The notes under the pieces: model-generated | The model's input: the letters and a program-made list of their open reading frames with translations, nothing else | Database searches by the model: none | Told to the model about the DNA's origin: nothing | Shown here: positions 12,992-33,468 of the stretch, one piece after another | Layout: every line of letters starts with the position of its first letter | How positions within the stretch are numbered: the stretch's first letter is position 1 | Program-made: the position numbers and the translations under genes | Assembly: GCA_009787085.1 (NCBI GenBank) | Contig: WRGR01000045.1 | Coordinates: forward strand, 64,075-128,074 | Source of the DNA: Actinomycetes bacterium | Lineage (GTDB): Bacteria; Actinomycetota; Coriobacteriia; Coriobacteriales; UBA8131 | Length of the DNA stretch: 64,000 nucleotides | Reading direction: 5' to 3'

Positions 12992-12994
12992 TGC

Positions 12995-13525
12995 TCATAC
13001 CTCCAATGCTGCTTTGACGGCTTCGTCAACCCGAACGCCATCAACGATCTTGGCAGCAGCGGTGACATCAGTGACCACCGGACGCGGAGCCAGCCGGTTC
13101 TCCTTCAAGGCGCTACGGCGCTCTTCGAGGATGCCCAAGCCGGTTACCACGGCATCGATAATCGCCTCCGGGCGAATAGCACACCCCGGAGCATAAACAT
13201 CGACCGGAATGGCATTGTCAACGCCGCCCAAAGTGTTGTAGCACTCCCGGAAGATACCGCCGGTACAGGCGCAAATTCCACAGGCAATGACCACTTTGGG
13301 GTCAGGTATCTGCTCATATATCTGTTGCAGCACTTTGATGTTCTGCTCATTGACACTGCCAGTGACCAAGAAAATATCAGCATGCTTGGGATTGCCAGTG
13401 TTGATGATGCCAAAACGCTCAACATCGTACATGGGTGTCAAACAGGCCAGTACCTCGATGTCACAGCCATTGCAGCTGGAAGCATCGTAGTGCAGCAGCC
13501 AAGGGGATTTTGCAGTTGCAGTCAC
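12995..13525 (-). CDS. echC: Hydrogenase small subunit (NuoB-like, one [4Fe-4S])
   Basis: SSCNGCDIE, ACGICACTGG and APGCAIRPE, the NuoB/EchC cysteine pattern. Confidence 0.88.
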   Translation of the reverse strand: MTATAKSPWLLHYDASSCNGCDIEVLACLTPMYDVERFGIINTGNPKHADIFLVTGSVNEQNIKVLQQIYEQIPDPKVVIACGICACTGGIFRECYNTLGGVDNAIPVDVYAPGCAIRPEAIIDAVVTGLGILEERRSALKENRLAPRPVVTDVTAAAKIVDGVRVDEAVKAALEV

Positions 13526-13534
13526 TATATCCTC

Positions 13535-14440
13535 CTAACCCAACCAGTGCCAATTAAGTGAGACCAAGTTAACAGTCACGCAAACTAACGTAACTATCCA
13601 AGACCATCTTAACATGGCACCCCACTTAACGCGGGCAAAGTTGTTGTCAATGAATATCTCCAGAAAATACACTACCAAAAGGGCAACGATCGCGATCGGA
13701 ATGGCCAGCCAATTTCCCCAGACGAAGAAGATGCCAGTCCATCCCAAGAAAAGGATGTTCTCGTACCAGTGGGTAACCTCGACCAAAGCCAAGGTGCGAC
13801 CGCTCATCTCCGTGGAGATACCCTTGACCAGCTCTTGGTGGGCATGATGTGAATAGCTAAGGTCAAATGGGCTTTTACGGAACTTGATGGTCAGGATGAA
13901 GAGGAAGCCAACGAAGATTAAGGGCAGACAAGTGATCAGCGGACGATCCAGTGCGAACACGGCGCTGGTGTCAAAAACACCTGGGTTACTAACCCCGTTC
14001 AGAACGTCCATGCCCAAATAAAAGGCGACGCAAAGCATGATGACCATCGGCTCATAGCTCATAACCTGGGCAATCTCGCGCTCAGCGCCGATCTCCGCAT
14101 AAGGGGAGCGGGTCGAATAGGCCGCGATCACGAAGAACAGGCTGGAAAGCGTGAGCACAAAAACCACCAGCAGGAAGTTGCCGCCGGCAAAGAAGATGAC
14201 GCCGGAGATGATGGCAAAGACCAGAGACATCAGGATATAAAAGCCCTGATAGCTGTTGACTGTCCACTTCTGCTTGTTCCAGAGCTTCAAAACGTCATAG
14301 AAGGGCTGTAGCAGGGGCGGGCCGACACGGCTTTGCAAACGGGCGGTGATCTTGCGGTCGACACCGGCCAACAAGCCGCCCAACAATGGGGCAAAGATGG
14401 TAAAGCAGACTAACGAAATGATGAAAGATACTATAGTCAT
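13535..14440 (-). CDS. echB: Hydrogenase integral membrane subunit (NuoH/HycD-like)
   Basis: 301 aa polytopic membrane protein of NuoH-like size, sitting between the antiporter-like and small subunits. Confidence 0.8.
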   Translation of the reverse strand: MTIVSFIISLVCFTIFAPLLGGLLAGVDRKITARLQSRVGPPLLQPFYDVLKLWNKQKWTVNSYQGFYILMSLVFAIISGVIFFAGGNFLLVVFVLTLSSLFFVIAAYSTRSPYAEIGAEREIAQVMSYEPMVIMLCVAFYLGMDVLNGVSNPGVFDTSAVFALDRPLITCLPLIFVGFLFILTIKFRKSPFDLSYSHHAHQELVKGISTEMSGRTLALVEVTHWYENILFLGWTGIFFVWGNWLAIPIAIVALLVVYFLEIFIDNNFARVKWGAMLRWSWIVTLVCVTVNLVSLNWHWLG

Positions 14441-14451
14441 GTGTCAGCCTC

Positions 14452-16458: not shown

Positions 16459-17087
16459 CGACACCCTCCTTCAAAGCTATTGGTGCCCACTTCCATCTGT
16501 TTAGCAGATGTTACTGACAATTTCGATTTCACAACTTCTCCTTCCAGCAAGATAGGGCGTACACGACTATCCAGTCGTCTTGGTGAAAACCGCGCAACCG
16601 CACTGCGAGTTACAACAACACGAGCCGCGGTGACCTAAGTTGGGATTGGCTCCTTCCGCAAAACCAGCTTCGCCGCATGACCTAGAAGATGTTTCCTGCC
16701 GCCCCCGACAGGGCGCCCCTGCCAGCTTCCCTATTGCTCAAAACGGCAATAGTCTTAGGCATCTCTTCTAGCTCCTCGTCCAAGACTCCCCAGCCCTGGT
16801 TCCAATCTCCAACCCGACAACAGAATGATAACGTGCTCTAAACTGTGATATTATATCGCACCTACAGCTGGGATGCAGTTCTGAGATTTACTATAAAGTT
16901 AAGATACTTTTCCTACAAAATGTATGAGAAGACAACGGCACTAGTCGGTGGCTTCCTGGGGAAGCAGCGTAAAAGATTGCGGCTCAAGGCCGCAATGACT
17001 GTACTTCGAGCATTGATCAACACTTCCCAAGCAGCACCTGTGTTAAAATCATCGGAACAAGTGCCTGTCAAACAGCGAGGAGTCCAA

Positions 17088-17670: not shown

Positions 17671-17874
17671 ATGTGCCTTTCGACTATCTATTATGCCGAT
17701 GATAAAAAACATGAAGAGCCACTGGCCGAAGATGTTACCGAGGTGCGCATAAGAGACGGTTGCCTTGTTTTTACCGACCTGATCGGCGCGGACACCGAGA
17801 TAGCCGGGGATATCGAGTGTATCGATTTTGTCCGCAGCTATATCACCGTGAGAAGACCCGAGGGCACTGCCTAG
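17671..17874 (+). CDS. cooT: CooT-family nickel-binding protein (CODH maturation)
   Basis: 67 aa starting MC (Cys2). The length and pattern resemble Rhodospirillum rubrum CooT (MCMAKVVL...). The start is 1 nt after the His-rich gene's stop. Confidence 0.7.
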   Translation: MCLSTIYYADDKKHEEPLAEDVTEVRIRDGCLVFTDLIGADTEIAGDIECIDFVRSYITVRRPEGTA

Positions 17875-19057: not shown

Positions 19058-19753
19058 TCAGCTCACTTGCTTCCGACAGTACATCAGGTGGTCAACGAGA
19101 ATACCGCCGGCTACAGCCAAGTCCTCAGCGCTAAAGGCAAATTGTAAACTGGAGTCAAAGAGCAGCACCACCGAAGCCGGGAACTCATCGTCCTCGCGCC
19201 AAAATCGTAGGCTGACCGGTAGTCCATCCAAGAGGTCAAAGCGATAGCCCAAATCACAATTGTCGTCCAAAAGTTCGCCTTGAAAACCGTTGTTGCCCTC
19301 CATAATAGCCCGTAAGCTCTCCAAGTCTTTGGAGAAGCCCTTGATCAAACGACGGCTAACCCGGCCGTTGAAGCACTGTTCATAAGTGTTAGCGCTGGGC
19401 ATATCCCGATAATGCCATTCCTTTCCGGTAGCTGGGGCAAACTGTCCCTCGCAAAGATAGCGGATCACCAAAATACGCTCGTAGTCATTACCGTCAGGAT
19501 GTCCACCGATGCTGGTCATTGTGAAGTCCGGCCAACTAGCCCGATAACCAAACCCGGCCAAGGTAAAGCAAAATTCGCGGCTGTCCGAATCGTAGCGCAA
19601 ATTAGTGCGCTCAGACATAACCAGGGGGTCAAGGCTCTGGTAGATAGGGAGATAGTATTTGAGCGCATTAGTCGTGAGATTCTGCTGCCCCGGAACAAGG
19701 TTGTAGACTCCCTTTGACTCCAAACCGCTAGCGCTGCCATTTGCAACAATCAT
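19058..19753 (-). CDS. DUF3786-like protein (paralogue 2, the most divergent)
   Basis: Shares LPVSLRFWREDDEFPASVVLLFDSSLQFAFSAEDLAV with the other two copies. Confidence 0.65.
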   Translation of the reverse strand: MIVANGSASGLESKGVYNLVPGQQNLTTNALKYYLPIYQSLDPLVMSERTNLRYDSDSREFCFTLAGFGYRASWPDFTMTSIGGHPDGNDYERILVIRYLCEGQFAPATGKEWHYRDMPSANTYEQCFNGRVSRRLIKGFSKDLESLRAIMEGNNGFQGELLDDNCDLGYRFDLLDGLPVSLRFWREDDEFPASVVLLFDSSLQFAFSAEDLAVAGGILVDHLMYCRKQVS

Positions 19754-19818
19754 AAGATTTCCTCAATTCGATACTATACCGTTTACACTGTCCCCTTTGA
19801 TGTGGGATGAGATGCTGT

Positions 19819-20442
19819 TTACCGCTCAGCCTTCTGTTGTTGGATTATCTCACATAAGCCCCGGCCGAGGCTGGTAGAGAGGAAGGCCAAACACTCGAAG
19901 TCCATGTAAAACGGCGCAGTCTCATCGTACTGCACCTGCACTTCAGCAGGAAATTCTTCATCTGGCTCAAAATATAACAGGCGCATTGGCATTTTCGGGA
20001 AAACAAGAAACTGCCAACTGTGGCCGCTCATCAGCTTGCCCTCATAGGTGCCGCCCATTGCCTCAGCAGCCGCCGCAAACACATCGTATTTGCCCTTTGA
20101 CTCCCGAAGCAGGGCATCACAGATGAACCAGTTCTCATCGTCATGACCTTCCATCACGCCAGACAAGCGCCCGATGGGCACAAAGCTTAGCTTAGGCTCA
20201 ATGCCACCCTCGGAAAGGATGTAGTGGATCACTAAGCTGCGGTCGTTGATGTGTACCGGATCACGCCCGTCGACCTGTTCAACGCCCTGATTGGTTATCA
20301 GATAGCGATGTGTCAAGAAATTTATCGACACACTGCCATCGTCATTGGTGTTCAAGCCAAGGTTTTTAGCATGGCCGACAATGTCGCAAGTAGCGAGCTG
20401 GGGCAAAAGACCAATGTATATTTGCTCATAGCCAGTGGGCAT
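19819..20442 (-). CDS. DUF3786-like protein (paralogue 3)
   Basis: FPKMPMRLLYFEPDEEFPAEVQVQYDETAPFYMDFECLAF. The N-terminus YEQIYIGLLPQLATCDIVGHAKNLGL parallels paralogue 1 (YEKNYESLRSWLADLDVEAVYQRLGL). Confidence 0.7.
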   Translation of the reverse strand: MPTGYEQIYIGLLPQLATCDIVGHAKNLGLNTNDDGSVSINFLTHRYLITNQGVEQVDGRDPVHINDRSLVIHYILSEGGIEPKLSFVPIGRLSGVMEGHDDENWFICDALLRESKGKYDVFAAAAEAMGGTYEGKLMSGHSWQFLVFPKMPMRLLYFEPDEEFPAEVQVQYDETAPFYMDFECLAFLSTSLGRGLCEIIQQQKAER

Positions 20443-20458: not shown

Positions 20459-20650
20459 TTATCCTTCTACCACTGCCGCATGATACTCACACATACCAGC
20501 ACAATCGCCGCAGCCACTGCATTTGTAGGAGTCAATCCAAGGTTTGTCAGATGGCTCTTCCCTGATGACTGCATACTTCGAACACTCCTCTTGCACCCTA
20601 CAAGACAGGCAATTGGCACAGAGCTTAGGATCAATATACACTGTCCTCAT
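20459..20650 (-). CDS. Small 2x[4Fe-4S]-type ferredoxin
   Basis: 63 aa with cysteine motifs CANCLSCRVQEEC and CSGCGDCAGMC. Confidence 0.8.
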   Translation of the reverse strand: MRTVYIDPKLCANCLSCRVQEECSKYAVIREEPSDKPWIDSYKCSGCGDCAGMCEYHAAVVEG

Positions 20651-20934
20651 TTGTAGGCTTGTGCCTTAGCAGCTTTTATCTTCTCTTCTGCGTTCTCCCT
20701 GCTAGCAGTCATCAACCTTTCATACATCTCTTCACCCAAACATTCCTTTGCCATCTTGCACCAGTTAATGCAAGAGATGACATCGTTAAAAACTACGAAC
20801 CCACAACTGGTGCAGGCCAGCTCGATATCGGTAGAAAACAACTGCACTTCCGCACCACACTCCGGGCAGGTCTTGACTTCAAGAGTCGGTGTGCCTGTGA
20901 AGTTGGCGGCTCCTGGACATCCGTTAATAGCCAT
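20647..20934 (-). CDS. Cys-rich small protein with a zinc-ribbon-like core (unknown family)
   Basis: 95 aa with motifs GCPGAANF, CPECG...CTSCG and CINWCKMAKEC. GAGGAAG lies 9 nt upstream of the ATG. Its stop overlaps the ferredoxin start (ATGA). Confidence 0.55.
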   Translation of the reverse strand: MAINGCPGAANFTGTPTLEVKTCPECGAEVQLFSTDIELACTSCGFVVFNDVISCINWCKMAKECLGEEMYERLMTASRENAEEKIKAAKAQAYK

Positions 20935-20989: not shown

Positions 20990-22909
20990 TTATCGTATTG
21001 TCTCAAACAATGAGGCATCAGTATGTGGTAAAAACAACGCAGCGCTATATTGATCCATATAACCCAGTTCAGTGGATAGATCCAAATAGGTCATCCGGTG
21101 GGCAACCTCGAAAAGAAGCTGCCGATGCCGTGCCGAAATCAATGCCATATGAGCACCACTAACCGAAGTGTTGCCAATGAAATGCACTTTGTCATGGATC
21201 AATTTCGGCAACAAACCGATAGCCATGGCATCGTCACTGTCCAGATAGCGGCCAAAACCGCCGGCAATCATCATCCCGGAAAGATCCTCAAATCCCAGCC
21301 CGACGTTTTGCAGAAGTAGATACATGGCAGAGAAAATCGCTGCTTTGGCGCGGATGATGTTTTGGATATCGTTCTCAGAAACCGCCACCCGCATATTCTC
21401 AGCGGGCTCAATTACATAGGTGGCGCTACGGCCATTGATCTCAATGGCCTTGCAAGGACGTTCGCGCTCCAACTGGCCAGCAAAGTCAATCCAGCCGCTA
21501 CGCAGCAGGTTGGCCACCAATGAGATCATGCCAGAGCCGCAGATGCCTTTAGGGGTTTGACCACCGATCACCGAATAAGTAGCCTCACCAGTCTCCGGGT
21601 CCACCGACACCCGCTCGATGGCACCCAAGGATGCTCGCATGCCCTGGTTGATGCCACCGCCCTCAAAAGCCGGTCCGGCCGAACAGGCGCATCCCATCAG
21701 AAAGTCACCATTGCCTAAGACCAGCTCGCCATTGGTACCGATATCCAAGAACAGATAGATATCGTCAGTGTTTTTAGAGAGGTCGGTGCAGAGTAGACCG
21801 GAGATGATGTCGCCACCCAGATAACTGCCTACCGAAGGCACGATCAATATCGGTGCCGCCGGGCAGATGTCAATACCCAAGTCCGCAGCAGTATACAGTG
21901 GCACCTCATAGACTGTTGGCACATAGGGATCGAGGCGAATGTATTCCGGTGGTACCCCCAACAGCAAATGCACCATGGTTGTGTTGGCAGCAACGGTCAT
22001 GTCATAGATACGCGCCGCCTGACCGCCAACTTCCTCCAACAATTCTTGAAGCAAATGATTGATGGTCTTAACAACCTTACTGCGCAGCTCTTCTAGACGA
22101 TCAGGTTTTTGAGCATAGTTGATACGGCTGATCACATCTAGGCCACATGCGATCTGGCCGTTGTAGTCTGTTTTCGATGCCACTATCCGTCCAGAAGTCA
22201 AATCGACCAGCTGTAGAGCCACTGTAGTGGTGCCGATATCCAAGGCAATGCCGAGACGCGCCGGAGCAGAAGCCTCATCAGAGGCTGATTTGGCCGGCAG
22301 CACGTCCACCACCCGAACCAAGGAACCCACAATGTGATAAGCAACTCGCAGTGCCTCATCTTCCCGAATCACTTCCGGAAGATCGCGCAAGAGCGCCAGC
22401 GGCAAATCAACATCCAACGAGCTGCCACTATCTAGGGCAGAGTCCAACGCCCCTCGCAAAGCAATAACAAAGCGGTCGTAGTCCGACCGACCGTCGCCGG
22501 CAACCGGCTGGACGGGCGTGATCTCAATCAAGCCAACCAAGGGCTGCAGATCGTCTTTGCTAGGCAAAAGTGCCGGGTCAACCAACATAATGTCTTCTGA
22601 TTGCTCGGAGAATACGCCTTTTTCGTTCTCTACATTAGAGAGCAAACGAACACGCACTTGCGTTGGATCGCTGAGCAGTGTCTTGCAAGCCAGCGCATAG
22701 CCTTCATCCAACATGTCCTTTTCCAGAAGGGGGTTATCCTCGCGGATAACCCCTCCTGAAAGCACCTGAACGATGCACTTCTTGCATATGCCCTTGCCAC
22801 CGCAAGGTATTTCCACCGCTAATCCTGCTTTGCGCGCCGCATCGAGAATGCTCTCGTTTACTTCGGCTTCAACCGTTACTCCGCTCGGCAAGAATGTAAC
22901 CGATGGCAC
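20990..22909 (-). CDS. acsV: Reductive activator of the corrinoid Fe-S protein (RACo/AcsV-like)
   Basis: N-terminal 2Fe-2S ferredoxin module (VEIPCGGKGICKKC) plus an ASKHA-type ATPase body (LGIALDIGTTTVALQ, FLDIGTNGELV). 639 aa, as in RACo. Confidence 0.85.
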   Translation of the reverse strand: MPSVTFLPSGVTVEAEVNESILDAARKAGLAVEIPCGGKGICKKCIVQVLSGGVIREDNPLLEKDMLDEGYALACKTLLSDPTQVRVRLLSNVENEKGVFSEQSEDIMLVDPALLPSKDDLQPLVGLIEITPVQPVAGDGRSDYDRFVIALRGALDSALDSGSSLDVDLPLALLRDLPEVIREDEALRVAYHIVGSLVRVVDVLPAKSASDEASAPARLGIALDIGTTTVALQLVDLTSGRIVASKTDYNGQIACGLDVISRINYAQKPDRLEELRSKVVKTINHLLQELLEEVGGQAARIYDMTVAANTTMVHLLLGVPPEYIRLDPYVPTVYEVPLYTAADLGIDICPAAPILIVPSVGSYLGGDIISGLLCTDLSKNTDDIYLFLDIGTNGELVLGNGDFLMGCACSAGPAFEGGGINQGMRASLGAIERVSVDPETGEATYSVIGGQTPKGICGSGMISLVANLLRSGWIDFAGQLERERPCKAIEINGRSATYVIEPAENMRVAVSENDIQNIIRAKAAIFSAMYLLLQNVGLGFEDLSGMMIAGGFGRYLDSDDAMAIGLLPKLIHDKVHFIGNTSVSGAHMALISARHRQLLFEVAHRMTYLDLSTELGYMDQYSAALFLPHTDASLFETIR

Positions 22910-22939: not shown

Positions 22940-24265
22940 TTACTTGGAGAGCACTGCCTTGACATAACTCTCAATGTCGCCGGCCTCTTGTGGGCCGATC
23001 AGCACTTTCCAGCCAGGCATAGCCTCTTCCAGCTCACCGCTGATCTGCGCAACATAGCCAGGGATGATGATCTCCCGTGTCTTGACTTGACCCTCCAAGT
23101 CAAAGGCTTGAGCGGCCTTGCCGATTTGCGCACCACCGAACTTACCGGCTGCCCAAGCAGTGAGAACTGACATGCCCTCACATTCTGGCAGCAGCAACCA
23201 AGCGCTAAGGCCGGCATTCTCGATTTCACCAGAAACGATGAAGTAGGTCAGCGAGAAGTTGGTGGTCACGAAGACCGGTGAATTCTCATCCGGATCCCCG
23301 ATCGGATAGACCTTCGGCTCTACCTGAATCGGCTTCTGCGGATCAGTGAAGATGTTCTGACGCAGGGTCATCAGGCAGACCAGCTGGGCAAGATCAAAGG
23401 TGGGCAGCACGACAACGCCACCGTACTTGTCAATCTCCAAGTTGGCCAGCATTGTGTCTTGCAGTATGTCACCACTGTCAATGAAGGTCAGCGTGGGATA
23501 GCCAACATCCTTGTTGCCGTCTTTCAACGCCGTACGGCGAATGATGGTGTTGAATTGCAGCCGCTGGGCAGCAGTTTTCCCACCAAGGTCAAGCAACAGG
23601 TTACCAAAACCGTCGGCCTTGAACTTTTTGGCCAAGTTGATAACATCGTCCAAACTGTCGCCGCTGACAGCCATGGTCAAACCATTGGCTTCTGCCAAGC
23701 CAAGCATCTGCGGTGCATTAGCAGCATTGACTCCGGCCAGGATGCTTTTGGTGTCCTTGACGGCAGCTGCTGCTGCCTCAGCAGCATTGGGGTTAGCGGC
23801 ATTGATAATAACCGCCTTGCCAGTGACTTCGGCAGCCTTTTTGACCAAGGCTGCAAAGGCATTGTCGTCGTCGGATTTCTGGGTGACAGCGATCGCCTCG
23901 ATGAGCAGCAGCTCACCAACCCGAATCAGCTCATAGTCCTTGACTGCTTGGATGGTTTTTTCCGCATCCGGGTCGTTGTCGTTGACGTTCACCGCAATGA
24001 TCGTTTGGTTGATGAAGGTCTTATCGTGACGATAAAGAACAGTCTCGCCACCAATCTTGAAATCGCCGACCTCGATCGTCTTTACTGGCGGCTCACTATC
24101 GGCACCGAGAATCTCCTTGGCCTCATCGGAGGCGTAAGGGCACTCCGCCAGACTGGCTTTCTTAGAAGCCAGCTTCATCGCGAAAGCAAGGCAGGTGTCA
24201 GAACCGCACTCCTTGCAGTTCGTTTTGGGCAACAGCTTTTGTATTTGAAGTCCACTTAATGCCAT
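22940..24265 (-). CDS. acsC: Corrinoid iron-sulfur protein large subunit
   Basis: N-terminal Fe-S motif LPKTNCKECGSDTCLAFAMKLA. The ATG at 24265 lies 8 nt after AGGAGG. The longer 24328 start would overlap the upstream gene. Confidence 0.9.
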   Translation of the reverse strand: MALSGLQIQKLLPKTNCKECGSDTCLAFAMKLASKKASLAECPYASDEAKEILGADSEPPVKTIEVGDFKIGGETVLYRHDKTFINQTIIAVNVNDNDPDAEKTIQAVKDYELIRVGELLLIEAIAVTQKSDDDNAFAALVKKAAEVTGKAVIINAANPNAAEAAAAAVKDTKSILAGVNAANAPQMLGLAEANGLTMAVSGDSLDDVINLAKKFKADGFGNLLLDLGGKTAAQRLQFNTIIRRTALKDGNKDVGYPTLTFIDSGDILQDTMLANLEIDKYGGVVVLPTFDLAQLVCLMTLRQNIFTDPQKPIQVEPKVYPIGDPDENSPVFVTTNFSLTYFIVSGEIENAGLSAWLLLPECEGMSVLTAWAAGKFGGAQIGKAAQAFDLEGQVKTREIIIPGYVAQISGELEEAMPGWKVLIGPQEAGDIESYVKAVLSK

Positions 24266-24281
24266 GACAACTATCCTCCTA

Positions 24282-27200
24282 TTACGCGTTCTGTTGATCG
24301 AGCATTTCGAATATTGCATTCTTGGCAACCTTGGCTGCCTCCGGATGGTACATCACCAAGATGTCGCCACCGGCTTGCAAGAGCGTCATCGCAGTGGTTA
24401 ACTCCCACATCGCAGAGCGCTTCTTGACATCGCCCCAAAGCGGGTAATCCGCCTCGGGAGCTTTGAACTCCTTGCACTTGGCACTCTCAAAGCCAGCCGT
24501 GACGATCATCGGTGCGCAAAGCATCTGGTCACCGCCAAGGCCGGTCAAACGGATACGCTCCATGACCGAATAGGTGTACTCAACACCGTAGCCGATTGAG
24601 CTGGACAGAGGATCCATGATGATCCGGTTCTGAGGCAAGCCCATGTTAGTAAGCAGAATGGCCATCTGCTTGCTGATGTTCACATCGATGGGTGCTTGGG
24701 AGACGAGCGAATGGCCATAAGCCATGGCAGCACCGGCGATGGTACGGTAGTTGTCCTGCTCAACCCAGTTCAACAACAGGTTCTCACCTTCGAAGCTCTG
24801 GGCGATAGCCTTGAACACCTCGTTGTTGGAATCAAAATGGCTGGTTCCAGTAACAATCAGGGGTACATCCACAGCCTTCAGAACCTCACCGACGAGATCC
24901 ACGGACTGCTGCGGGCTGCGGTTGCCTTTCTCAGGATGCGTGGCATCCAAGCGCACGGAGATCATGTCAGCGCCATACTTCTCCACACAGGCAGCAGCCA
25001 TAGCAGCCGGATCATTAACCAAATCTCCGTAAACCTCACGTAGAATCTCCGGGTACTTATCGGAAACCTCGTCGAAGACCTCCATGGCTAGCAGCGGTCG
25101 ATTGGGCATCTTGCCCTCGAAGAGCTGGAAGGGCATGCAGTTGTGGCCACCAACGGTATAGGTCTTGGCACGGGTGCCGCCTTCCTCCTTGGTTGCACCA
25201 AGCTTGACTTCCCAAATCTCATTCTCACAGACCTCTTTGTTCACCGGGAACGATGTGACTTCGGCGATCAGGTCAGCCGCCTTGGGCTGCGCACTGACGG
25301 AAACCGATGCACCAGCAGCAGCTGTACCGCCGGCTTCACCTAGGGACACGGACTTACCCAAGAACTTCTGGGAAAGAACCTCGATGATCGAGGCTACAAC
25401 GTCCTCAGTGACCGACGAGCGCACCTCGGTGGCCATCTGCTCACGCAGGGCCTCCATATCCGCACCGCTGAGCTCAGTTGTAGTGCCAGCGGCAGCGGCG
25501 GCAGTCTCGACCTCGGCAGCCTTCTCAGTCTTGTGCACAGCCGGAGTGTCGTCTTCTTTCTGCATGTACTCGGTCATGTCGTCCATCTCCAGAGCCGGAT
25601 GGTTGACCTTCTCCATAAAGGCACGCAGCTCCTCGGCAGTGGTGGCGATGGTCTCGTCAGCGATCTTGTCGAACATGTCCGCAACACCCTGCTCATCCAA
25701 GCGCTTCTTCATATCCTCGGCGATCGACTCTTTAAGCTCCTTGGGCATCCAAGCCAAGCGACGGAAGCCGCCCTCTGCCGAGCAGAATTTACGAGAGGTC
25801 AAGAAGACCTTGCCGATGCCGACAAAGCCCGGTGTCTGCATACCGCCGCCGACGTTACCGGCCAGTGATGAGAAGGTCATGCCGCAAGGCGTGTCGCCCA
25901 AAAACTCGCGGTTGACAACCATCACGCCGTTGACCTCCGGCACATAAGCCACGATCGCCTCAAAGCAACCGCAACTGGTCATCGGCCGATCCATGATGGA
26001 ATAGGCACAAAACTCCTCGATCGCTTTATGGCTGCTGGTGTAGACAAACTCGTTGATGCCTTCCCAGACGCCTTTGGACTCATCAAGACAAGTACCCTTG
26101 GCGATCGGTTGGTTGGGGCCGGTGGGGTCGATCTCGTGGGCGGCCTTGCCATCCAGCCAGTTATAGGCACCGCAGAGGCCAAGGCGCTCCGGTGTGATAA
26201 CACAAACGTGGTTCGGGGCAAAGCTCTGGCAGAGCAAGCAGGAGTAGAAGATGTCCACAGAGTCGTCAGTCATAGCCTCCAAGCGGCGGTTGCGCTCGTC
26301 ATAGACTTTGCGAGCAACAGCTTGGCGCTTCTCCACTTCCTCGGCATCGGTTACCAAGGTCACCTTGACCTTGTCGACGATGGCCGGGTAGTCGGCCAGC
26401 AGCTTGGCATGCAGGATCTCGCCGTAGTGGCGCATCCGCAAACCCTTGTTGTAGCCGTCCTTGGAAACACGGGTCCAAACGATGTCGCGCTGACCCATGT
26501 GCCAAATGCCCTCAGCACCGTTCACCATGTGGTGCACTTGACGCTCGAGGATCGGCTCGAAATCGACCTGCATCTTGCGACCGGCAGCCTCGACCCAGAT
26601 CGCCAAGGGCAATGCCGTACCCGGCTCGACCTCGTCGATATCCGGGCCGATCAGCTCGATCTCACCGTCCTCGATGTCTTCTGGCTCGACCATGGTGACA
26701 AACTCGAAGGCCGAGGTCTTGTTGCCGCCGAATTCGACCTGGGTGTCTTCCTTGCGGATCCGCTCGCCCTCGAAGGCCGGGCCGTAGGCCACTGGCACAG
26801 GAACGTCAACGATCTTGATCTTGCAGCCTCTGACATCCAGAGCCTTCTCCACGATGGTTTCCAGCGGCACGTTGGCAACAACATGCTCGTAGGTACAAAC
26901 GCCCGTAGGCAGGATCTCCGGAATGTTAGTGTCGGCGATGGTCGGGAAGCCGTAGTTGATGGCACCAGCAGCGGCGGCATATTTGTCCGGCGTAACCTCG
27001 CCCAACGCCAAGACAAAGGCGAAGATGCGGTCCTTGTTGTATTTCAGATGTGCCTCGAAGTCACCGGGTTTGACACCGCCGAAGGACATTGCGGCGCGGC
27101 TGGCGAAGCCGAGTGCGTAGATCAGGGCGGAGACATCGCTGCCGAAGGGCACCAAGCGGGTCTCCCAACCCAGCTGGACACCTTCTTCTTCCAGTTGCTC

Positions 27201-27749
27201 GGCAAACTGCTTGCCGTTGGAAGTGCCGCCCATGAAGACGTAGAGGTTGCGCTGCTGAAGCTCTTTGGCAATGCTCACGGCGGTGGCGTTATCGGCTACC
27301 GAGCCGCAGATGGCAGCAAAGCCAGGGGCTGTGCCGTCCACGAACTCAATGCCGCGCTCGCGCATGATAACATCGGTCGCCGCACCCAGCCAAATGCCGT
27401 CGACCGGCTTGGGGCCGACGAGGTACTTACAGGCCTCGAGTATCTCGCAAGCAAACAGAGCAGCCACGCCGGCATCCAAAGTGTTGCCTAGGTATGGCAG
27501 CCAAACATCGTCGACCGGGCGGGCGGGCAGCAAGTCCCGGGCACCCTTCAAGACTTCTTTGGCATCCTTCAGGGTCTCCACCTTCTTGCCGGTGAAACCA
27601 TAGATTACCGGCAGATAATACGCAGTGTCCGGAAACCCGACGGCGCCGTCCTCGCCAAATTCCTTGATAGCCTCGTCAAGCTTAGCCTCCGCTTTGACGA
27701 CCCATTCCACTGCTCCGTCAATCGCGGATGTTGCTATGATTTTAGACAT
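24282..27749 (-). CDS. Acetyl-CoA synthase (AcsB) fused in frame to the CFeSP small subunit (AcsD)
   Basis: 1155 aa. Residues ~1-735 are AcsB-like (GFPDTAYYLPVIYGFTG; A-cluster cysteines CLLCQSFAPNHVCVITPERLGLCGA and SCGCFE). A ~100 aa Ala/Thr/Glu-rich linker is encoded at about 25225-25555. The C-terminal ~320 aa are AcsD-like (IWEVKLGATKEEGGTRAKTYTVGGHNCMPFQLFEG, YGADMISVRLD, IMDPLSSSIGYGVEYTYSVMERIRL). There is no stop or frameshift between the parts. Confidence 0.9.
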   Translation of the reverse strand: MSKIIATSAIDGAVEWVVKAEAKLDEAIKEFGEDGAVGFPDTAYYLPVIYGFTGKKVETLKDAKEVLKGARDLLPARPVDDVWLPYLGNTLDAGVAALFACEILEACKYLVGPKPVDGIWLGAATDVIMRERGIEFVDGTAPGFAAICGSVADNATAVSIAKELQQRNLYVFMGGTSNGKQFAEQLEEEGVQLGWETRLVPFGSDVSALIYALGFASRAAMSFGGVKPGDFEAHLKYNKDRIFAFVLALGEVTPDKYAAAAGAINYGFPTIADTNIPEILPTGVCTYEHVVANVPLETIVEKALDVRGCKIKIVDVPVPVAYGPAFEGERIRKEDTQVEFGGNKTSAFEFVTMVEPEDIEDGEIELIGPDIDEVEPGTALPLAIWVEAAGRKMQVDFEPILERQVHHMVNGAEGIWHMGQRDIVWTRVSKDGYNKGLRMRHYGEILHAKLLADYPAIVDKVKVTLVTDAEEVEKRQAVARKVYDERNRRLEAMTDDSVDIFYSCLLCQSFAPNHVCVITPERLGLCGAYNWLDGKAAHEIDPTGPNQPIAKGTCLDESKGVWEGINEFVYTSSHKAIEEFCAYSIMDRPMTSCGCFEAIVAYVPEVNGVMVVNREFLGDTPCGMTFSSLAGNVGGGMQTPGFVGIGKVFLTSRKFCSAEGGFRRLAWMPKELKESIAEDMKKRLDEQGVADMFDKIADETIATTAEELRAFMEKVNHPALEMDDMTEYMQKEDDTPAVHKTEKAAEVETAAAAAGTTTELSGADMEALREQMATEVRSSVTEDVVASIIEVLSQKFLGKSVSLGEAGGTAAAGASVSVSAQPKAADLIAEVTSFPVNKEVCENEIWEVKLGATKEEGGTRAKTYTVGGHNCMPFQLFEGKMPNRPLLAMEVFDEVSDKYPEILREVYGDLVNDPAAMAAACVEKYGADMISVRLDATHPEKGNRSPQQSVDLVGEVLKAVDVPLIVTGTSHFDSNNEVFKAIAQSFEGENLLLNWVEQDNYRTIAGAAMAYGHSLVSQAPIDVNISKQMAILLTNMGLPQNRIIMDPLSSSIGYGVEYTYSVMERIRLTGLGGDQMLCAPMIVTAGFESAKCKEFKAPEADYPLWGDVKKRSAMWELTTAMTLLQAGGDILVMYHPEAAKVAKNAIFEMLDQQNA

Positions 27750-27814: not shown

Positions 27815-29800
27815 TTAATGAGCCGAGCGGCGATCAGCCATGTCGAACAGCTTGCGCTCAACCTTCTTGTTGATACCCAGAGCATCCCTAGCCGCGTTCA
27901 GTATCTCGATGATCCGCTCAACAGCCTCCATGGGATCCTCAATCAGATGGAACGATGCACCGAATAGTTCTTTGGTGTCCTCATACAAGAACTTGCTCAC
28001 TTTTTCGGAACCGGACACATAAAACTCGTTGCCCAAGATGACGTCAACACCCGATGCCACACAATAGCAACCGATGGCAATAGCCTTTTCGCTCATCCAT
28101 TCCGGAGCCACGCCAACTGCCGGCAGACCGGCGATATCGTCACCCAAGCCGCCTTCTTTAACAATCTCAGTGGCAGCTTCCAAGATACGGGAGTTGTCCA
28201 CGCAGCTGCCCATATGCAGGATCGGCGGAATGCCGACGGCCTCGCAGACCTCAGCCAAGCCGGCACCGGCATGCTCACGGGCATACTCCGGTGTCATGTA
28301 GCCGGCCTTACCGGCAGCGATAGCCGCACACCCGGTCTCGATAACCAAGACGTTCCGCTTGATCAGCTCTTCGGCCAAAATACCGCTGTAGCTGTCGGCA
28401 CGCTGCTTGGGATTGTTGCAGCCGACGATGCCGACGATGCCCAAGATCCGGTTTTGGATGATGGCGTCGTTCAGCGGCCGGAAGGAGGCACGATACTTAC
28501 CGCCCAGCATGTACTTGATAGCGTCCACCGAGAAACCGGCGATCAGCGGCTCATGCTCGGAGGGTATCTTGACCTTCTCTGGGTCGCGATTCTTGAAGTT
28601 ATCGATCGCCCGCTTGATGATGTTCTTGGCCGACTCGATGGGTGCCTCTTCATCGAAGCCCATGTGGGTGGCACCGGCCATCTTGGCGATCTCCTGGGTG
28701 GAGACGATCTCGGTGTGATAATGTGCAGCCACTTCCGGAAGTGCTGGCATGCAGCACTGGACATCGATGACCATCATCTCCACAGCACCGGTGATGACAG
28801 CCAGTTCCTGCTGCAGGGAGTTGCCGGCGATGACCACGCCCTGACGCATCAAGACCTCGTTGGCCGTGCAGCAAACGCCAGCGATGGTAATGCCCTCGGC
28901 ACCGGCAGCTTTGGCATATTCCGCGATCTCCGGGTCTTTGACGGCGAAGGTCAGCATCTCAGAGAGGGTCGGCTCATGACCGTGAATCAGAATGTTCACG
29001 GTTTCGTTCTTCAGAACGCCCAAGTTGGCCGCTGACTTCAGCGGCGCAGGGGTGCCGAAGAGAATGTCGGAAGTCATGGAAGCAATGCGGGCACCGCCCC
29101 AACCGTCGGCCAGCGAGGTACGGAAGGCATGCATCAAAAGGTTTTTGTAGTCGTGGTCCACGCCCATGGTGGTACGATGCATGGCCTCGACACACATCCG
29201 GTCAACGCCCTTGGGGGCAACGCCGGTCTGCTGCCAAATGCCTTGGCGTTTCTGAGGAGCCAGCGCCAACGTGGCCAAGTAGTCTTCCTGAGACATGAAG
29301 TCATGCAGGAAGATGTCGGTCAGCTCCAAGGCGATCTGAGAGGCCGTCTTGTCCTCGGTCTCAATGCCGTAGAGCTTGGCCACCCGAACCAGCGCCTTCT
29401 CGTCTTTGATGGTGTAGCCATGACCCTCGCCCTTGGCGATCTCCCGAAGCTTCAAAACCAGATGACGGCCATGGTCGGAGTGCGCAGCGGTACCGCCCAC
29501 TACCTCACGCAGGAAGTTGCGTGCGGCAATGGTGTCAGCGGTGGCACCGCAGATGCCCTTCGGAGCCTTAGGGGTGATGCGGCACGGACCCATGTGGCAA
29601 ATGCGGCAACAAACACCGGATTTGCCAAAAGTACACTGGTTCTTCTGGGTTTCCATGCGGTCGAAACAAGTTTCAACACAATCGTCCAAAGCCTTGTTCA
29701 ACATCGCCAAGGACGCATTGTCCACGACTTTGTTTGCGTTCTCAACAATCTTGTCTTTCAGTTCTTGGTCTTTGTCTTTCTTTTCTTTATCTGCTGCCAT
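27815..29800 (-). CDS. acsA: Anaerobic carbon-monoxide dehydrogenase catalytic subunit
   Basis: CRICHMGPCRI, HGHEP, GVCCTANE and GSCVDNSR, the cluster B/C/D ligand motifs of CooS/AcsA. Confidence 0.93.
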   Translation of the reverse strand: MAADKEKKDKDQELKDKIVENANKVVDNASLAMLNKALDDCVETCFDRMETQKNQCTFGKSGVCCRICHMGPCRITPKAPKGICGATADTIAARNFLREVVGGTAAHSDHGRHLVLKLREIAKGEGHGYTIKDEKALVRVAKLYGIETEDKTASQIALELTDIFLHDFMSQEDYLATLALAPQKRQGIWQQTGVAPKGVDRMCVEAMHRTTMGVDHDYKNLLMHAFRTSLADGWGGARIASMTSDILFGTPAPLKSAANLGVLKNETVNILIHGHEPTLSEMLTFAVKDPEIAEYAKAAGAEGITIAGVCCTANEVLMRQGVVIAGNSLQQELAVITGAVEMMVIDVQCCMPALPEVAAHYHTEIVSTQEIAKMAGATHMGFDEEAPIESAKNIIKRAIDNFKNRDPEKVKIPSEHEPLIAGFSVDAIKYMLGGKYRASFRPLNDAIIQNRILGIVGIVGCNNPKQRADSYSGILAEELIKRNVLVIETGCAAIAAGKAGYMTPEYAREHAGAGLAEVCEAVGIPPILHMGSCVDNSRILEAATEIVKEGGLGDDIAGLPAVGVAPEWMSEKAIAIGCYCVASGVDVILGNEFYVSGSEKVSKFLYEDTKELFGASFHLIEDPMEAVERIIEILNAARDALGINKKVERKLFDMADRRSAH

Positions 29801-29916: not shown

Positions 29917-30675
29917 TTAGAAATTTTTGACAATCTCGTCGACTTTCTTAATGACGGCATTGTCTGAAGGAAGCTCCAAGAAAACTCGTGAATCCTCGGC
30001 GAACTTCGCCACTTCCTCATCGTCGGGCAAAAAGTAAATCTCGTCTGCCCCGGTCGCAACACGGACCTCTTCAGCAGCTTTCGGCACCTGGTCGCTACGC
30101 AAGCGGTTGATCACCAAGACCAACTTCTTGTAATTCAGCTTCATCTCATTGGCCAAATCATGCAAACGACCGAGCGTCCTGATACCCGCATTGGATGAGT
30201 CAGAAACCAGCATCAGCACGTCAACATCGGCCACAATGCGGCGAGAGAGGTTCTCTAGCCCGGCCTCATTGTCCAAAACAACATAGGGGTACTCGCCAGA
30301 CAGCTTCTGGATCACGGTTTTCAGCACACCGTTGGCGTAACAATAGCAGCCTGCTCCTTCTGGACGCCCCATCGATATCATGTCGAATCCCTTGGACTCC
30401 ACGAGGCTCTCGTTGATCTTCATTTGCAGCACCTCGGTATTAGAGATGCCGCTGTCTTTGTCCTGAGCGTTGTCCCGGGCTTCTTCACGGGCTGCGCCCA
30501 CGGATTTGGTAACCGTGACCCCCAGCGCCGTGTCTAGACAGCTATTCGGATCGGCATCAATAGCCAACACCGGCTTCTTGCCGGCCTCGATCAGCTGCTT
30601 GACGATCATTGACGAGATGGTTGTCTTGCCAACACCACCCTTTCCGGATATCGCCACAAAAAACGTCATGCGCAA
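29917..30675 (-). CDS. cooC: CooC/AcsF-family Ni-insertion ATPase (copy 2)
   Basis: P-loop SGKGGVGKTT and CxC metal motif GAGCYCYANG. The start may be the Met at 30669. Confidence 0.85.
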   Translation of the reverse strand: MRMTFFVAISGKGGVGKTTISSMIVKQLIEAGKKPVLAIDADPNSCLDTALGVTVTKSVGAAREEARDNAQDKDSGISNTEVLQMKINESLVESKGFDMISMGRPEGAGCYCYANGVLKTVIQKLSGEYPYVVLDNEAGLENLSRRIVADVDVLMLVSDSSNAGIRTLGRLHDLANEMKLNYKKLVLVINRLRSDQVPKAAEEVRVATGADEIYFLPDDEEVAKFAEDSRVFLELPSDNAVIKKVDEIVKNF

Positions 30676-31448
30676 ACCTCCAGTTTATCGAGTATTTCCT
30701 GATAGATAGCCACCAGCTCGGGGCTTGCGGTATCCAGAACCGATACGCCGTCACGATCCGCGGCCCGGATCGTGTCAGAATAGGGAATGATTCCCAGAGG
30801 CTCTGAGGGAAGCTGTTCGCGAACGTAGTCCTCTTCCCCGGCATTAGCTACCTTGTTAGCAACAAACTCCACATGCTGAAGGCCGATCTCTCTGGCCATC
30901 CGGTCTATGGTAATAGCAGCATCGATCGAACGCTGGCCGGGCTCGACGACACAAACCACCACATCCACGCCCTTGACAGTAGAACGCCCCAAATGCTCAA
31001 TGCCTGCTTCCATGTCCATAATCAAAGTCTGGTTTTGGAACAAGACCAAGTCGGTGGTCAAGGATTGTGCGAAGACGTTCTCCGGACACGCGCACCCTGA
31101 CCCACCGGCTTGGATCGCACCAAGCACTAGGAGCGAGATGTTGCCTCTTTTGTACGCGAACTTGTCAGCTACGTCATGCACCTCGGGATTGAGCTTGAAA
31201 ACCTGCCCATACCGGTTCACTTTCGCGCCAGTGCGCTCTTCGATCAGGGCGATCTGTTTGGAGATCGGCACGATCTTGCTTTGCTCGGCATGCGAGATGC
31301 CCAAGGCCTGAGCCAAGTTAGCATCCGGATCAGAGTCAAACGCCAGCACCTCGCCGCCCTCTTTGGAGAGCAGCAAGGCAAGCGCAGCAGCAAGGGTGGA
31401 TTTGCCTACTCCACCCTTACCGGTAACGGCGATTTTCTTTCCCGCCAT
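30666..31448 (-). CDS. cooC: CooC/AcsF-family Ni-insertion ATPase (copy 1)
   Basis: P-loop TGKGGVGKST and CxC motif GGSGCACPEN. Confidence 0.85.
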   Translation of the reverse strand: MAGKKIAVTGKGGVGKSTLAAALALLLSKEGGEVLAFDSDPDANLAQALGISHAEQSKIVPISKQIALIEERTGAKVNRYGQVFKLNPEVHDVADKFAYKRGNISLLVLGAIQAGGSGCACPENVFAQSLTTDLVLFQNQTLIMDMEAGIEHLGRSTVKGVDVVVCVVEPGQRSIDAAITIDRMAREIGLQHVEFVANKVANAGEEDYVREQLPSEPLGIIPYSDTIRAADRDGVSVLDTASPELVAIYQEILDKLEVCA

Positions 31449-31450
31449 TC

Positions 31451-32518
31451 TTAGAAACCGTACTTTTCCCTCATACGGGCACTGAGGGCCTGAAGCAGCT
31501 CGAATACGCGCTCGGCATCGTCGACCGCAATCGAGCCGGTACCGCAGGCCGGTGTGAGGAATGCCTGGTCGAGAATCAGGGATTTCTCGATACCAGCAGT
31601 GCTGGCCAGATGATCCATGACATACTCCAAGCGCTCCTCCAGCGAGTCCACCGTCTCATCACGGATCAACGATGAAGTCGGGCAGATGCCCCAAGCCAAG
31701 GTGCCGCCGCGCTCCAAATGGCGCTTGACATGCTCCGGATACATGGCGATGGTTTCGCCGAACTCAAAGGCATCGAAGTTGACGATATCCACACCAGCAT
31801 CGATCAGGATCGACCACTCGGTGTTGCCACAGCAGTGGATGCCGGCCAAACCACCGTCTTGGTGCACGGCATCGATGGTCTCGATCAGAATATTCACAAC
31901 ATCCTCACGCTGTACGGACACGTAAGTCGACGATCCGAAGGCCGAGAGGATCGGCTCATCGATAAAGCAGACAATGGTATCGGCGTAGGAAGCGAACTTC
32001 TGGATCTGCCAGCGGCATTTCATGGCGATGGCCTTGGTGATCATGTCGCGGAATTCCTCGTTGTAATAAATCGCCCGCTTGTCTTGGTCGACCAGCGTCA
32101 AGGCAATTGAGCAGGGCCCGGTGACCTGGACCTTCAGATAGGGCAGTTTGCCGCCCTTGGCCTTCAGCTGGCGCTCCATCTCGTAGATGCCATGAGAGTA
32201 CTCCTCGCTGATAGCCATAGCCGAACAGTCGCCATTGCCCTCATCAGGGTCCATGGCCATGATATAGGACTCGTAGAAGTTCGCAAACTCCTCCGAATAG
32301 TCACCGTCAGTCTGGAAGAACATCCGGCCCTTCTCGGTGTCCAGCACGGTGCAGGGCATACCCTCGCTGTATTGGATTTCCATCTGTTCTTTCAGCCCGA
32401 AATAACCAAGCTGTGGCCAGATCGGCACATCCAGCCGCTTCAAGGACAGCTCTACTGCGTACTTGGGGTCGTCAAAAGGCATCGAGCCAATTGCTGTTGT
32501 AATACATTGCGGTTTCAT
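31451..32518 (-). CDS. Core-MetE-like (Meth_synt_2 family) Zn methyltransferase
   Basis: 355 aa. TTAIGSMP, VTGPCS, FIDEPIL, the Zn-ligand pattern IHCCGN...VNFDAFE and LTPACGTGS parallel MetE catalytic-domain motifs (TTTIGSFP, GPVT, IDEPA, HMCY...IE, PDCGL). Confidence 0.7.
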   Translation of the reverse strand: MKPQCITTAIGSMPFDDPKYAVELSLKRLDVPIWPQLGYFGLKEQMEIQYSEGMPCTVLDTEKGRMFFQTDGDYSEEFANFYESYIMAMDPDEGNGDCSAMAISEEYSHGIYEMERQLKAKGGKLPYLKVQVTGPCSIALTLVDQDKRAIYYNEEFRDMITKAIAMKCRWQIQKFASYADTIVCFIDEPILSAFGSSTYVSVQREDVVNILIETIDAVHQDGGLAGIHCCGNTEWSILIDAGVDIVNFDAFEFGETIAMYPEHVKRHLERGGTLAWGICPTSSLIRDETVDSLEERLEYVMDHLASTAGIEKSLILDQAFLTPACGTGSIAVDDAERVFELLQALSARMREKYGF

Positions 32519-32571: not shown

Positions 32572-33468
32572 TCAGAGAGCCTTGACAGCCTCTTTGATCG
32601 CCTTGATGTGGGCAGGAGTGGTGCCGCAGCAGCCGCCGATGATGTTGGCACCGGCCTTAACTAGATCGGGCACCAGCTTGGCCATGTCTTCCGGAGTGTC
32701 CGGGAAGGTGTCCTTGCCGTCTACCTGGATCGGCAGGCCAGCGTTGGCGTGCAGCAGGATGAAGGCATTCGGCTCAGCCTTGTGGATCCGCTCCACGATG
32801 GTCAGCATCCGGTCGACACCGTTGCCGCAGTTGGTGCCAACGATATCTGCCCCGGCCTCTAAGGCAGCCTTGGCAGCATCTTCTGGCGTGGTGCCCATCA
32901 TGGTACGATAATCGCCGTTCACCGTCTGCTCAAAGGTAAAGGTGCAGATCACCTCGAGGTTGGTGTTCTCTTTGGTGGCTTTGATGGCCAGTGCAGCCTC
33001 ATCGGTGGCAAACATGGTCTCGATGCAGACTGCATCCGCGCCGCCTTTCTCCAAGGCTATGACCTGTTCTTTATAGGCGTCGTACATTTCCTGCTCGGAC
33101 ACTTCCTCAGTAACCAGCAGCTTGCCGGTGGGGCCGGCAGAGGCGATTACCCAGTTGTCCTCACCAGCAGCGGCACGTGATGCCTTGGCCGCCGCCTCAT
33201 TGATCTCAGCAACTCGACCGGCCAAGCCGTAATGCTCCAGCTTATAGACAGTGCCACCGAAGCTGTCCGCCTCGACCATATCCGCACCTGCATCAATGTA
33301 GCTTTTTGCAATCTTAGTTACCTTGTCGCCGTGATCAACGGCCCAAAGCTCCGGACTCTCGCCTGGCTCCAAGCCCATCTCGATTAGAAAGGTTCCCCAG
33401 GCCCCGTCGGATACAAGAATCCTTCCCGCTTTAAGTGCATCAACGATTTTTCCACGAGTCATGCGCAC
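32572..33468 (-). CDS. Homocysteine S-methyltransferase-domain protein (stand-alone MetH Hcy-module-like)
   Basis: 298 aa with ILVSDGAWGTFL, GTNCGNG and GGCCGTTPAHI, the Zn-Cys3 pattern of the S-methyl_trans domain. It is the first gene of the acs operon. Confidence 0.8.
   Translation of the reverse strand: MRMTRGKIVDALKAGRILVSDGAWGTFLIEMGLEPGESPELWAVDHGDKVTKIAKSYIDAGADMVEADSFGGTVYKLEHYGLAGRVAEINEAAAKASRAAAGEDNWVIASAGPTGKLLVTEEVSEQEMYDAYKEQVIALEKGGADAVCIETMFATDEAALAIKATKENTNLEVICTFTFEQTVNGDYRTMMGTTPEDAAKAALEAGADIVGTNCGNGVDRMLTIVERIHKAEPNAFILLHANAGLPIQVDGKDTFPDTPEDMAKLVPDLVKAGANIIGGCCGTTPAHIKAIKEAVKAL

Follow-up and report, generated by a model that had tools for sequence, protein, structure and literature searches.

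Are acetyl-CoA synthase (ACS; AcsB) and the small subunit of the corrinoid iron-sulfur protein (CoFeSP; AcsD) always separate proteins in bacteria and, if they are not, what does their joining mean for methyl transfer between them? The question is raised by one open reading frame (ORF), at 24282..27749 on the minus strand of a 64,000-nucleotide stretch of contig WRGR01000045.1 from an actinobacterial assembly (GCA_009787085.1, class Coriobacteriia), hereafter called the window. In every characterised CoFeSP, AcsD is a free-standing protein of ~310-325 residues, whereas here it is the C-terminal module of a chain that begins with AcsB. We confirm that this acsB~acsD gene is a genuine, intact and conserved in-frame fusion. 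We also consider it probable that AcsB~AcsD works as a single chain, in which a largely disordered tether of ~110 residues leashes CoFeSP to ACS at a 1:1 ratio.

In the ORF listing and in its translation, the frame has no internal stop, a single terminal stop and 1155 residues. Pfam recognises CODH_A_N (residues 21-110), CdhC (318-472), ACS_CODH_B_C (483-725) and CdhD (848-1084) in the one chain. The AcsB module matches the full-length NCBIfam model NF040764 over residues 10-725 (1058.5 bits, cutoff 800) and also passes NF007078 (1044 bits, cutoff 809). In a PDB sequence search, residues 9-725 align end to end with solved ACS chains (7zkj_B, residues 24-727 of 730; 1oao_C), and all the ligands of the A-cluster are present (Table 1). 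The AcsD module passes the delta-subunit model NF003376 (residues 837-1150; 368 bits, cutoff 280) and the CdhD domain PF03599 (137 bits, cutoff 24.8), and residues 845-1148 align with residues 14-316 of the 323 of Moorella AcsD (4djd_D). As it stays below the cutoff of the WLP_AcsD model NF040759 (242.7 bits against 430) while passing NF003376, it belongs to a delta-subunit subfamily that differs from the AcsD of model acetogens. When conservation is expressed as the fraction of 89 fusion proteins that carry the consensus residue, averaged per segment, the AcsD module (0.81) comes close to the AcsB module (0.86). The first-pass annotation, made from the sequence of the stretch, had proposed an in-frame fusion of a full AcsB, with its A-cluster cysteines, and a full-length AcsD-like domain, and all three parts of this proposal stand. 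Its statement that the two proteins are separate chains in characterised systems is equally correct, solved ACS chains having ~708-734 residues and solved AcsD chains ~309-323.

The fused module is also probably the functional AcsD, since no second acsD occurs within 6 kb on either side of any fused locus and the gene order acsA-[acsB~acsD]-acsC-RACo is kept across the fused loci. The operon of the window likewise has no separate acsD. Its acsC starts 17 nt past the stop codon of the fusion, and acsA lies directly upstream, so that the partner Ni-dependent carbon monoxide dehydrogenase (CODH) of AcsB is encoded alongside.

The sequence itself is secure. The identical 1155-residue protein is found in two assemblies, on a 402-kb contig and in a Logan assembly made independently from SRR5247074, where the genes stand in the same order. 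The NCBI proteins of the neighbouring genes are MCL1880289-MCL1880301, with exact matches for the operon neighbours MCL1880289, 290, 292, 293 and 294. A sole accession number lies between AcsC (MCL1880290) and AcsA (MCL1880292), which is consistent with one annotated coding sequence. The exact fusion sequence is not in the NCBI protein set, though the number ending in 291 remains for it; this entry probably uses another start codon. Across the linker, only the reading frame in use is open, the other two containing 3 and 7 stops. A stop or a frameshift in the linker is now very unlikely, because a helix within it is conserved in frame at the protein level.

A survey of domain architectures, which the first-pass annotation had proposed, shows that the fusion is common. 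In a collection of 5.8 billion proteins clustered at 90% identity, 120 matches were listed, 67-100% identical to the window protein, and all 120 of these clusters carry the four Pfam domains in one chain of 1139-1272 residues. Their source labels include Oscillospiraceae, Eubacteriales, Bacillota and Treponema. A second survey, with one genome per GTDB species, gave more than 600 candidate stretches; among the best 80 loci, which were analysed, 43 encode AcsB and AcsD together in a single ORF free of stops, under many phylum labels. The spread over phyla is not merely an effect of binning, as very long contigs carry several of the fused loci, namely an 8.6-Mb Victivallales chromosome and contigs labelled Phycisphaerales (2.5 Mb), Terriglobia (2.0 Mb), Hydrogenedentota (1.6 Mb), Anaerolineales (0.9 Mb) and Leptospiraceae (0.56 Mb). 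At 50% clustering, only P0121, P0122 and P0130 are full-length fusions among the best 150 representatives, so the fusion is abundant but limited to a few deep clades.

For fused and unfused sequences alike, one neighbour-joining tree was built from the AcsB part, with 50 bootstraps, and another from the AcsD part, and the two trees are congruent. The main fused clade, which comprises the window, 38 further loci, P0121, L030 and L032, has no unfused member and is monophyletic in 50/50 AcsB bootstraps. A second fused clade, labelled Anaerolineales (P0122, L033, L034, L037), is separate in 50/50 and joins the main clade in 0/50. On these trees, the fusion arose at least twice. The 938-residue short form P0130, with a linker of ~30 residues and an N-terminally truncated AcsD, branches apart from both clades and may represent a third origin. 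In the nearest unfused relatives (L054, L071, L077), the gene order is acsB-cooC-acsD-acsC; AcsB stops just past a HPALxMPxLF motif, and AcsD begins with M..EIPKE, at a position equivalent to about residue 834 of the fusion. In fused operons, both cooC genes lie upstream of the fusion. The simplest route to the fusion would thus be the removal or relocation of the intervening cooC. Taken together, the monophyly of the main clade, the separateness of the Anaerolineales-type clade and the congruence of the AcsD tree suggest that selection favours or tolerates this design.

The linker occupies residues 726-835 (nt 25245-25574) and includes, among its 110 residues, 21 Ala, 13 Glu, 11 each of Thr, Val and Ser, and 7 Gly. 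A linker of ~100 residues rich in Ala, Thr and Glu had been placed at 25225-25555 in the first-pass annotation; its existence and composition hold, and its coordinates were off by ~20 nt. The linker is more than a low-complexity spacer, as a conserved helix of ~35 residues lies between two disordered and variable flanks in the subclade of the window. The core of this helix is near-invariant among the 89 fusions, with I788/I789 at 96-97%, L792 at 100%, F796 at 92% and L797/G798 at 99%. An AlphaFold2 (AF2) model of the full-length single chain, computed from the 89-sequence alignment (mean predicted local distance difference test, pLDDT, 76; predicted template modelling score, pTM, 0.49), folds both modules, places one long helix at residues 765-796 and has pLDDT below 50 at residues 733-775 and 792-820. 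A hidden Markov model (HMM) of the helix motif matches fusions of the main clade only, and neither Anaerolineales-type fusions nor any ORF of the unfused loci. Neither Pfam nor NCBIfam has a match for the helix, and in profile comparison it is similar to neither AcsB nor AcsD. Members with the helix have a first disordered segment of 35-97 residues and a second of 15-75. Over all fusions, the linker is 57-210 residues long, and none is shorter than ~57.

The possibility that the helix is universal to all fusions was ruled out, since neither the Syntrophales-labelled members nor the Anaerolineales-type clade has it. Because the helix is not universal, the common denominator of all fusions is the tether only, disordered and ~57 residues or longer; the helix is a conserved clade-specific addition, which the window protein carries. 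The Anaerolineales-type fusions have a linker unrelated to that of the main clade, again with a conserved helix-like element between flanking segments, here acidic and Pro/Ala-rich. In a basal subclade with Armatimonadota, Acidobacteriota and NC10 labels (L035, L036, L038, L039, L041), the linker holds a degenerate copy of the AcsD C-terminus, corresponding to its last ~90 residues with an internal deletion (GDGLSHVISVIEQVR … AALQMSTALNLLTAGANMLLMY). This relic matches the AcsD of the same proteins with E=3e-7 by BLAST and 3.7e-10 by HMM, both values coming from a small database. It hints that a partial duplication of acsD was involved in the fusion, or came later, in this subclade.

Other sources of the linker were considered and rejected. 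A derivation of the window-type helix from the SVMERIRLTGLGG helix of AcsD, an idea prompted by the relic in the basal subclade, received a probability of 0.5% with hhalign, which aligned another region and did no better than with a reversed control. Homology to the N-terminal tail of archaeal CdhD or the C-terminal tail of CdhC was also dismissed: the linker alone has no Cdh match, its best Pfam and NCBIfam matches are unrelated (E ≥0.0095, far under the cutoffs), and the NF003375 alignment starting at residue 771, from which the idea of an archaeal tail came, is a passenger extension. Two apparent free AcsD proteins with a linker were likewise set aside. P0152 is a contig-end fragment that lacks a Met start, and P0194, which matches the linker of L031, is probably a partial gene call too.

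How the fused chain probably works can be sketched from these features. AcsC, encoded right downstream, would associate with the AcsD module in the manner of free CoFeSP, which would leash the complete methyl carrier to ACS in a fixed 1:1 ratio. Once the AcsA dimer is added, a probable (AcsA)2(AcsB~D)2(AcsC)2 complex would result. At the A-cluster, the tether would make CoFeSP locally more concentrated, and it would be long enough for the corrinoid protein to let go and meet its methyl donor and acceptor enzymes as well as RACo. In the subclade of the window, the mid-linker helix probably docks on a partner or self-associates and may restrict or organise the tether. That tethering changes the stoichiometry and the dynamics of methyl transfer, as the first-pass annotation had supposed, is a reasonable inference from the architecture. 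Several points weigh against this reading. The 127-kDa chain in cells, the stoichiometry of the complex and the kinetic effect are predictions from sequence, and co-expression alone can fix a fusion with no mechanistic consequence. The helix is not confidently packed on either module in the AF2 model (helix pLDDT ~40-58, pTM 0.49). Syntrophales-labelled members of the main clade have a helix-free, Pro/Glu/Thr-rich linker of ~60 residues, and some other members have divergent helices or other linker elements. Finally, acsE (Pterin_bind), a candidate methyl donor for the tethered CoFeSP, was not recognised in the 64-kb window.

Of the alternatives, the one that survives best is a neutral "Rosetta-stone" fusion, in which the loss or relocation of cooC joined two adjacent co-expressed genes, methyl transfer stayed unchanged and the linker is only a frame-keeping sequence. 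The gene order of the nearest unfused relatives means that a single rearrangement is enough, most linker columns are at background conservation, and the linker sequences are very plastic: some have a helix and some none, and others contain repeats or a remnant of the AcsD C-terminus. The fusion nevertheless arose at least twice and has persisted across a very broad radiation, the main clade including no unfused member; the mid-linker helix is conserved like catalytic residues in the subclade of the window, and the lack of any linker under ~57 residues suggests a constraint on reach. Neutral fusion is plausible for a bare tether and fits the recurrence and the conserved helix more poorly, and as a general explanation we regard it as unlikely.

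A more far-reaching alternative, which we hold to be quite unlikely, takes the fusion as a third ACS architecture, a covalent bacterial "mini-ACDS", by analogy with the archaeal acetyl-CoA decarbonylase/synthase (ACDS). The helix would dock or oligomerise, as a convergent counterpart of the coiled-coil in the disordered tail of archaeal CdhD, and would organise (AcsA)2(AcsB~D)2(AcsC)2 units. The leashed CoFeSP would then split methyl groups between the A-cluster and homocysteine methyltransferase-like proteins, with no free CoFeSP pool and possibly no AcsE. The methyl acceptors would be two operon products, a MetE-like protein of 355 residues and a protein of the PF02574 family.

It is decidedly improbable that the one gene yields two proteins, through cleavage of the linker after translation or an internal start that frees AcsD, the mature enzyme then resembling the classical one. 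Long disordered Ala/Glu-rich linkers are open to proteases, and the window has a weak GGAG 9 nt upstream of the M725 codon. This GGAG, however, comes from the E721 codon, in a column whose consensus is K in only 25% of sequences, so that it is unlikely to be conserved. Strong Shine-Dalgarno-plus-start sites are not enriched in the linkers (0.29 per 100 codons, against 0.22 elsewhere) or positionally conserved, and the linker of the window has none. Across the fusion linkers, no conserved internal Shine-Dalgarno sequence or start was found before AcsD, and a conserved mid-linker helix would have no obvious role if the linker were discarded.

A lost stop codon or a frameshift in sequencing or assembly that merged two genes, for which only a frameshift in the AcsB part of a related locus from a long-read metagenome-assembled genome (MAG) could be cited, has a negligible probability in view of the identical protein from two assemblies, the same uninterrupted architecture in 43 species-level genomes and at least 120 protein clusters, the helix kept in frame, and the fact that unfused AcsB and AcsD have no sequence matching the linker, so that read-through alone could not produce it. 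An artefact of assembly can in effect be dismissed. The related locus (L030:3736-7273, from an 'MFD'-series MAG) shows the fused arrangement too, broken by a frameshift near AcsB residue 675 that probably reflects a sequencing error or a pseudogene. L030 and L032, both with 79% AcsB identity to the window, are among its closest relatives in the genome collection; the fusion of L032 is interrupted by the contig end.

The single tethered chain, which we prefer, can be compared with three known systems. Bacterial CODH/ACS with free CoFeSP, as in Moorella thermoacetica, Carboxydothermus hydrogenoformans and Clostridium autoethanogenum (1oao, 7zkj, 6ytt, 4djd, 2ycl, 9fzy), uses the same four catalytic proteins. 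As in these systems, the AcsB of the window has domains A1-A3 and identical A-cluster ligands, its AcsD has a triose-phosphate isomerase (TIM) barrel and is followed by AcsC, and genes for RACo and CooC are present. In these systems, AcsB and AcsD are separate and CoFeSP docks transiently, whereas the window has one chain with a helix-bearing tether of 110 residues; its operon, lacking a recognised acsE, has the MetE-like and PF02574 genes instead. A preprint describes the interfaces of this bacterial docking as large but transient and located on domains A1 and A3, and reports that in archaeal ACDS disordered tails hold the modules locally concentrated, the disordered N-terminal region of CdhD including an oligomerising helix (bioRxiv 10.64898/2026.07.07.736967).

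In the fusion, as in archaeal ACDS (CdhABCDE), ACS and CoFeSP would be kept together yet mobile through disordered regions, and, as in CdhD, a segment of disorder, helix and disorder precedes the AcsD barrel. The archaeal association is non-covalent, its CdhC lacks domain A1 and its CODH is of the CdhA/CdhB type. In contrast, the window protein has A1 (CODH_A_N), its CODH is of the bacterial CooS/AcsA type (76 bits with the cdhA model, cutoff 781), and its linker has no detectable homology to the CdhD or CdhC tails. The fusion may be seen as, in effect, a covalent bacterial version of the archaeal design, non-homologous to the archaeal tails. The third system is the cobalamin-dependent methionine synthase MetH, a modular enzyme whose corrinoid unit is attached by flexible linkers to the module that it methylates and must swing to others. 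In both, the corrinoid-carrying unit is covalently tethered. MetH combines all its modules in a single chain, and what is tethered is the B12 domain itself, whereas the fusion tethers the non-corrinoid small subunit, to which AcsC attaches non-covalently; in sequence, the two systems are unrelated.

AcsB occurs in further architectures, which differ from the window fusion in their partners or in their junctions. P0126 (1276 residues) and P0141 (1155 residues) were rejected as AcsB~AcsD fusions, since they are AcsB proteins interrupted by a large insert resembling an intein or homing endonuclease, located inside the A-cluster cysteine motif (SCxLC, insert, CQSFAPxHxC). Others are P0132, P0129, P0136, P0140 and P0128, several of which are N-terminal fusions to AcsB; P0132 has 1375 residues, with ACS at residues 667-1374. 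Together with the short form P0130, the N-terminal fusions and the intein-split proteins show that AcsB tolerates added modules.

The features of the fusion and of its neighbourhood are collected in Table 1. The minus-strand operon runs in the order PF02574 gene, 355-residue gene, two cooC, acsA, the fusion, acsC, RACo, a 95-residue ORF, two DUF3786 genes and a PucR-type regulator. DUF3786 genes also lie downstream of RACo in the fused loci L011, L015, L020, L022 and L045. The hydrogenase module listed in the table has a NuoD-like large subunit and NuoH-like and NuoL-like antiporter subunits; its presence beside the ACS operon, together with a cooT gene, suggests a CO- or ferredoxin-linked H2 metabolism. 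The rest of the operon flanks consists of housekeeping genes.

Table 1. Position of the acsB~acsD gene, its modules and sites, and the surrounding genes, numbered from the first letter of the window.
Feature	Position (nt)	Strand	Residues	Evidence or remarks
acsB~acsD fusion gene	24282..27749	-	1155	1155 codons plus stop codon at 24282-24284; ATG start
AcsB module	25575..27749	-	1-725	NF040764; solved ACS chains; AF2 folded module
AcsB domain A1			~1-317	
AcsB domain A2			318-472	
AcsB domain A3			483-725	
A-cluster [4Fe-4S] and bridging Cys motif, C504-x2-C507-x8-C516-x9-C526	26172..26240	-	504-526	Invariant in 89-sequence alignment
Distal-nickel ligand motif of the A-cluster, C593-G594-C595	25965..25973	-	593-595	Invariant in 89-sequence alignment
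Disordered segment 1 (IDR1), acidic and Ala-rich	25464..25574	-	726-762	Poorly conserved; consensus fraction 0.29
Conserved linker helix, ...EVRSSVTEDVVASIIEVLSQKFLGK	25350..25463	-	763-800	Consensus fraction 0.59; AF2 helix
Disordered segment 2 (IDR2), Ala/Gly/Ser-rich	25284..25349	-	801-822	Poorly conserved; consensus fraction 0.25
Short clade-specific helix before AcsD	25248-25283	-	823-834	
AcsD module, CoFeSP small subunit	24285..25244	-	836-1155	TIM barrel
acsC, CoFeSP large subunit	22940..24265	-	441	NF003195, 500.8 bits (cutoff 306); Pfam FeS and CdhD; MCL1880290.1
RACo, ATP-dependent reductive activator of corrinoid protein	20990..22909	-		Pfam Fer2, Raco_middle, RACo_C_ter
95-residue ORF between RACo and DUF3786 genes	20647-20934	-	95	
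Two tandem DUF3786 genes, downstream of RACo	19058..20442	-		Pfam
acsA, Ni-CODH catalytic subunit	27815..29800	-	661	TIGR01702, 642.9 bits (cutoff 478); Pfam Prismane
Two cooC/acsF-type Ni-insertion ATPase genes	29917-30669 and 30666-31448	-		Pfam CbiA, ParA, ArsA_ATPase
355-residue operon partner	31451..32518	-	355	No Pfam domain; MetE/uroporphyrinogen decarboxylase-like TIM-barrel fold (AF2, Foldseek)
Homocysteine S-methyltransferase-domain protein (PF02574)	32572..33462	-	296	Pfam
Ech/Coo-type membrane-bound [NiFe]-hydrogenase module	11469-16464	-		Beside the ACS operon
cooT, nickel-chaperone gene	17671-17874	+		Near the ACS operon

Two genes at the head of the operon may extend the range of partners of the tethered CoFeSP. 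The 355-residue gene adjoins the ACS genes in nearly every fused locus and in several unfused relatives. Its product has thousands of homologues annotated as hypothetical, which are 66-75% identical across phyla, with the closest relatives in Coriobacteriia MAGs. Among family models, it has a weak, sub-threshold NCBIfam match to a short methionine synthase (E=3.6e-7; 29.6 bits, cutoff 258). Its AF2 model (pLDDT 92.5, pTM 0.91) has as Foldseek neighbours MetE (1xpg_A; E=1e-7, TM 0.55), a methyltransferase of M. mazei (4ay8_A) and uroporphyrinogen decarboxylase. The protein has an invariant H228-x-C230…D249…C325 pattern, and these residues could fit a zinc site of the MetE type. Price et al. (PMC7857596) described the "core" methionine synthases MesB and MesC, which occur only in Wood-Ljungdahl organisms and are predicted to take the methyl group directly from CoFeSP. 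From its modelled fold, the 355-residue protein is a candidate CoFeSP-dependent core methionine synthase, similar to MesB or MesC or belonging to a further family. The PF02574 protein stands alone, is similar to the N-terminal half of YitJ/MetH and is encountered again in many of the fused loci. The presence of the MetE-like protein together with the PF02574 gene suggests that the tethered CoFeSP may also feed methionine synthesis.

A full-text literature search that did not cover the chief evolutionary survey (Adam et al., 2018, PNAS) returned no paper describing or discussing an AcsB-AcsD fusion, and a prior mention in that survey is possible. The fusion is a widespread, conserved bacterial variant of a known system, present in many phyla and apparently undiscussed. 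The fusion sequences are public, with precomputed domain hits; where those of the listed clusters are named, they are only called "acetyl-CoA synthase" or "subunit alpha/beta". As such names follow the AcsB half only, tools that look for a separate acsD or cdhD could score the pathway as incomplete. In many lineages, the fusion is probably the cause of "missing acsD" calls in automated pathway reconstruction; the labels of the affected MAGs include Victivallales, Phycisphaerae, Syntrophales, Acidobacteriota, Hydrogenedentota, Oscillospiraceae and Treponema.

Of all steps in the Wood-Ljungdahl pathway, the passage of the methyl group from CoFeSP to the A-cluster is the hardest to access, as the encounter of the two proteins is only transient. 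Natural partners joined covalently at 1:1 would be a ready system to trap and image the methyl-transfer complex, and would allow the effects of local concentration and tether length on flux to be probed. Fusions of genes for interacting partners are common. The AcsB~AcsD fusion is set apart by being widespread and recurrent, by its conserved linker element and by the handle that it offers on a catalytic step that is hard to trap. Beside the non-covalent archaeal ACDS, bacteria reached the solution of keeping these modules together at least twice by gene fusion.

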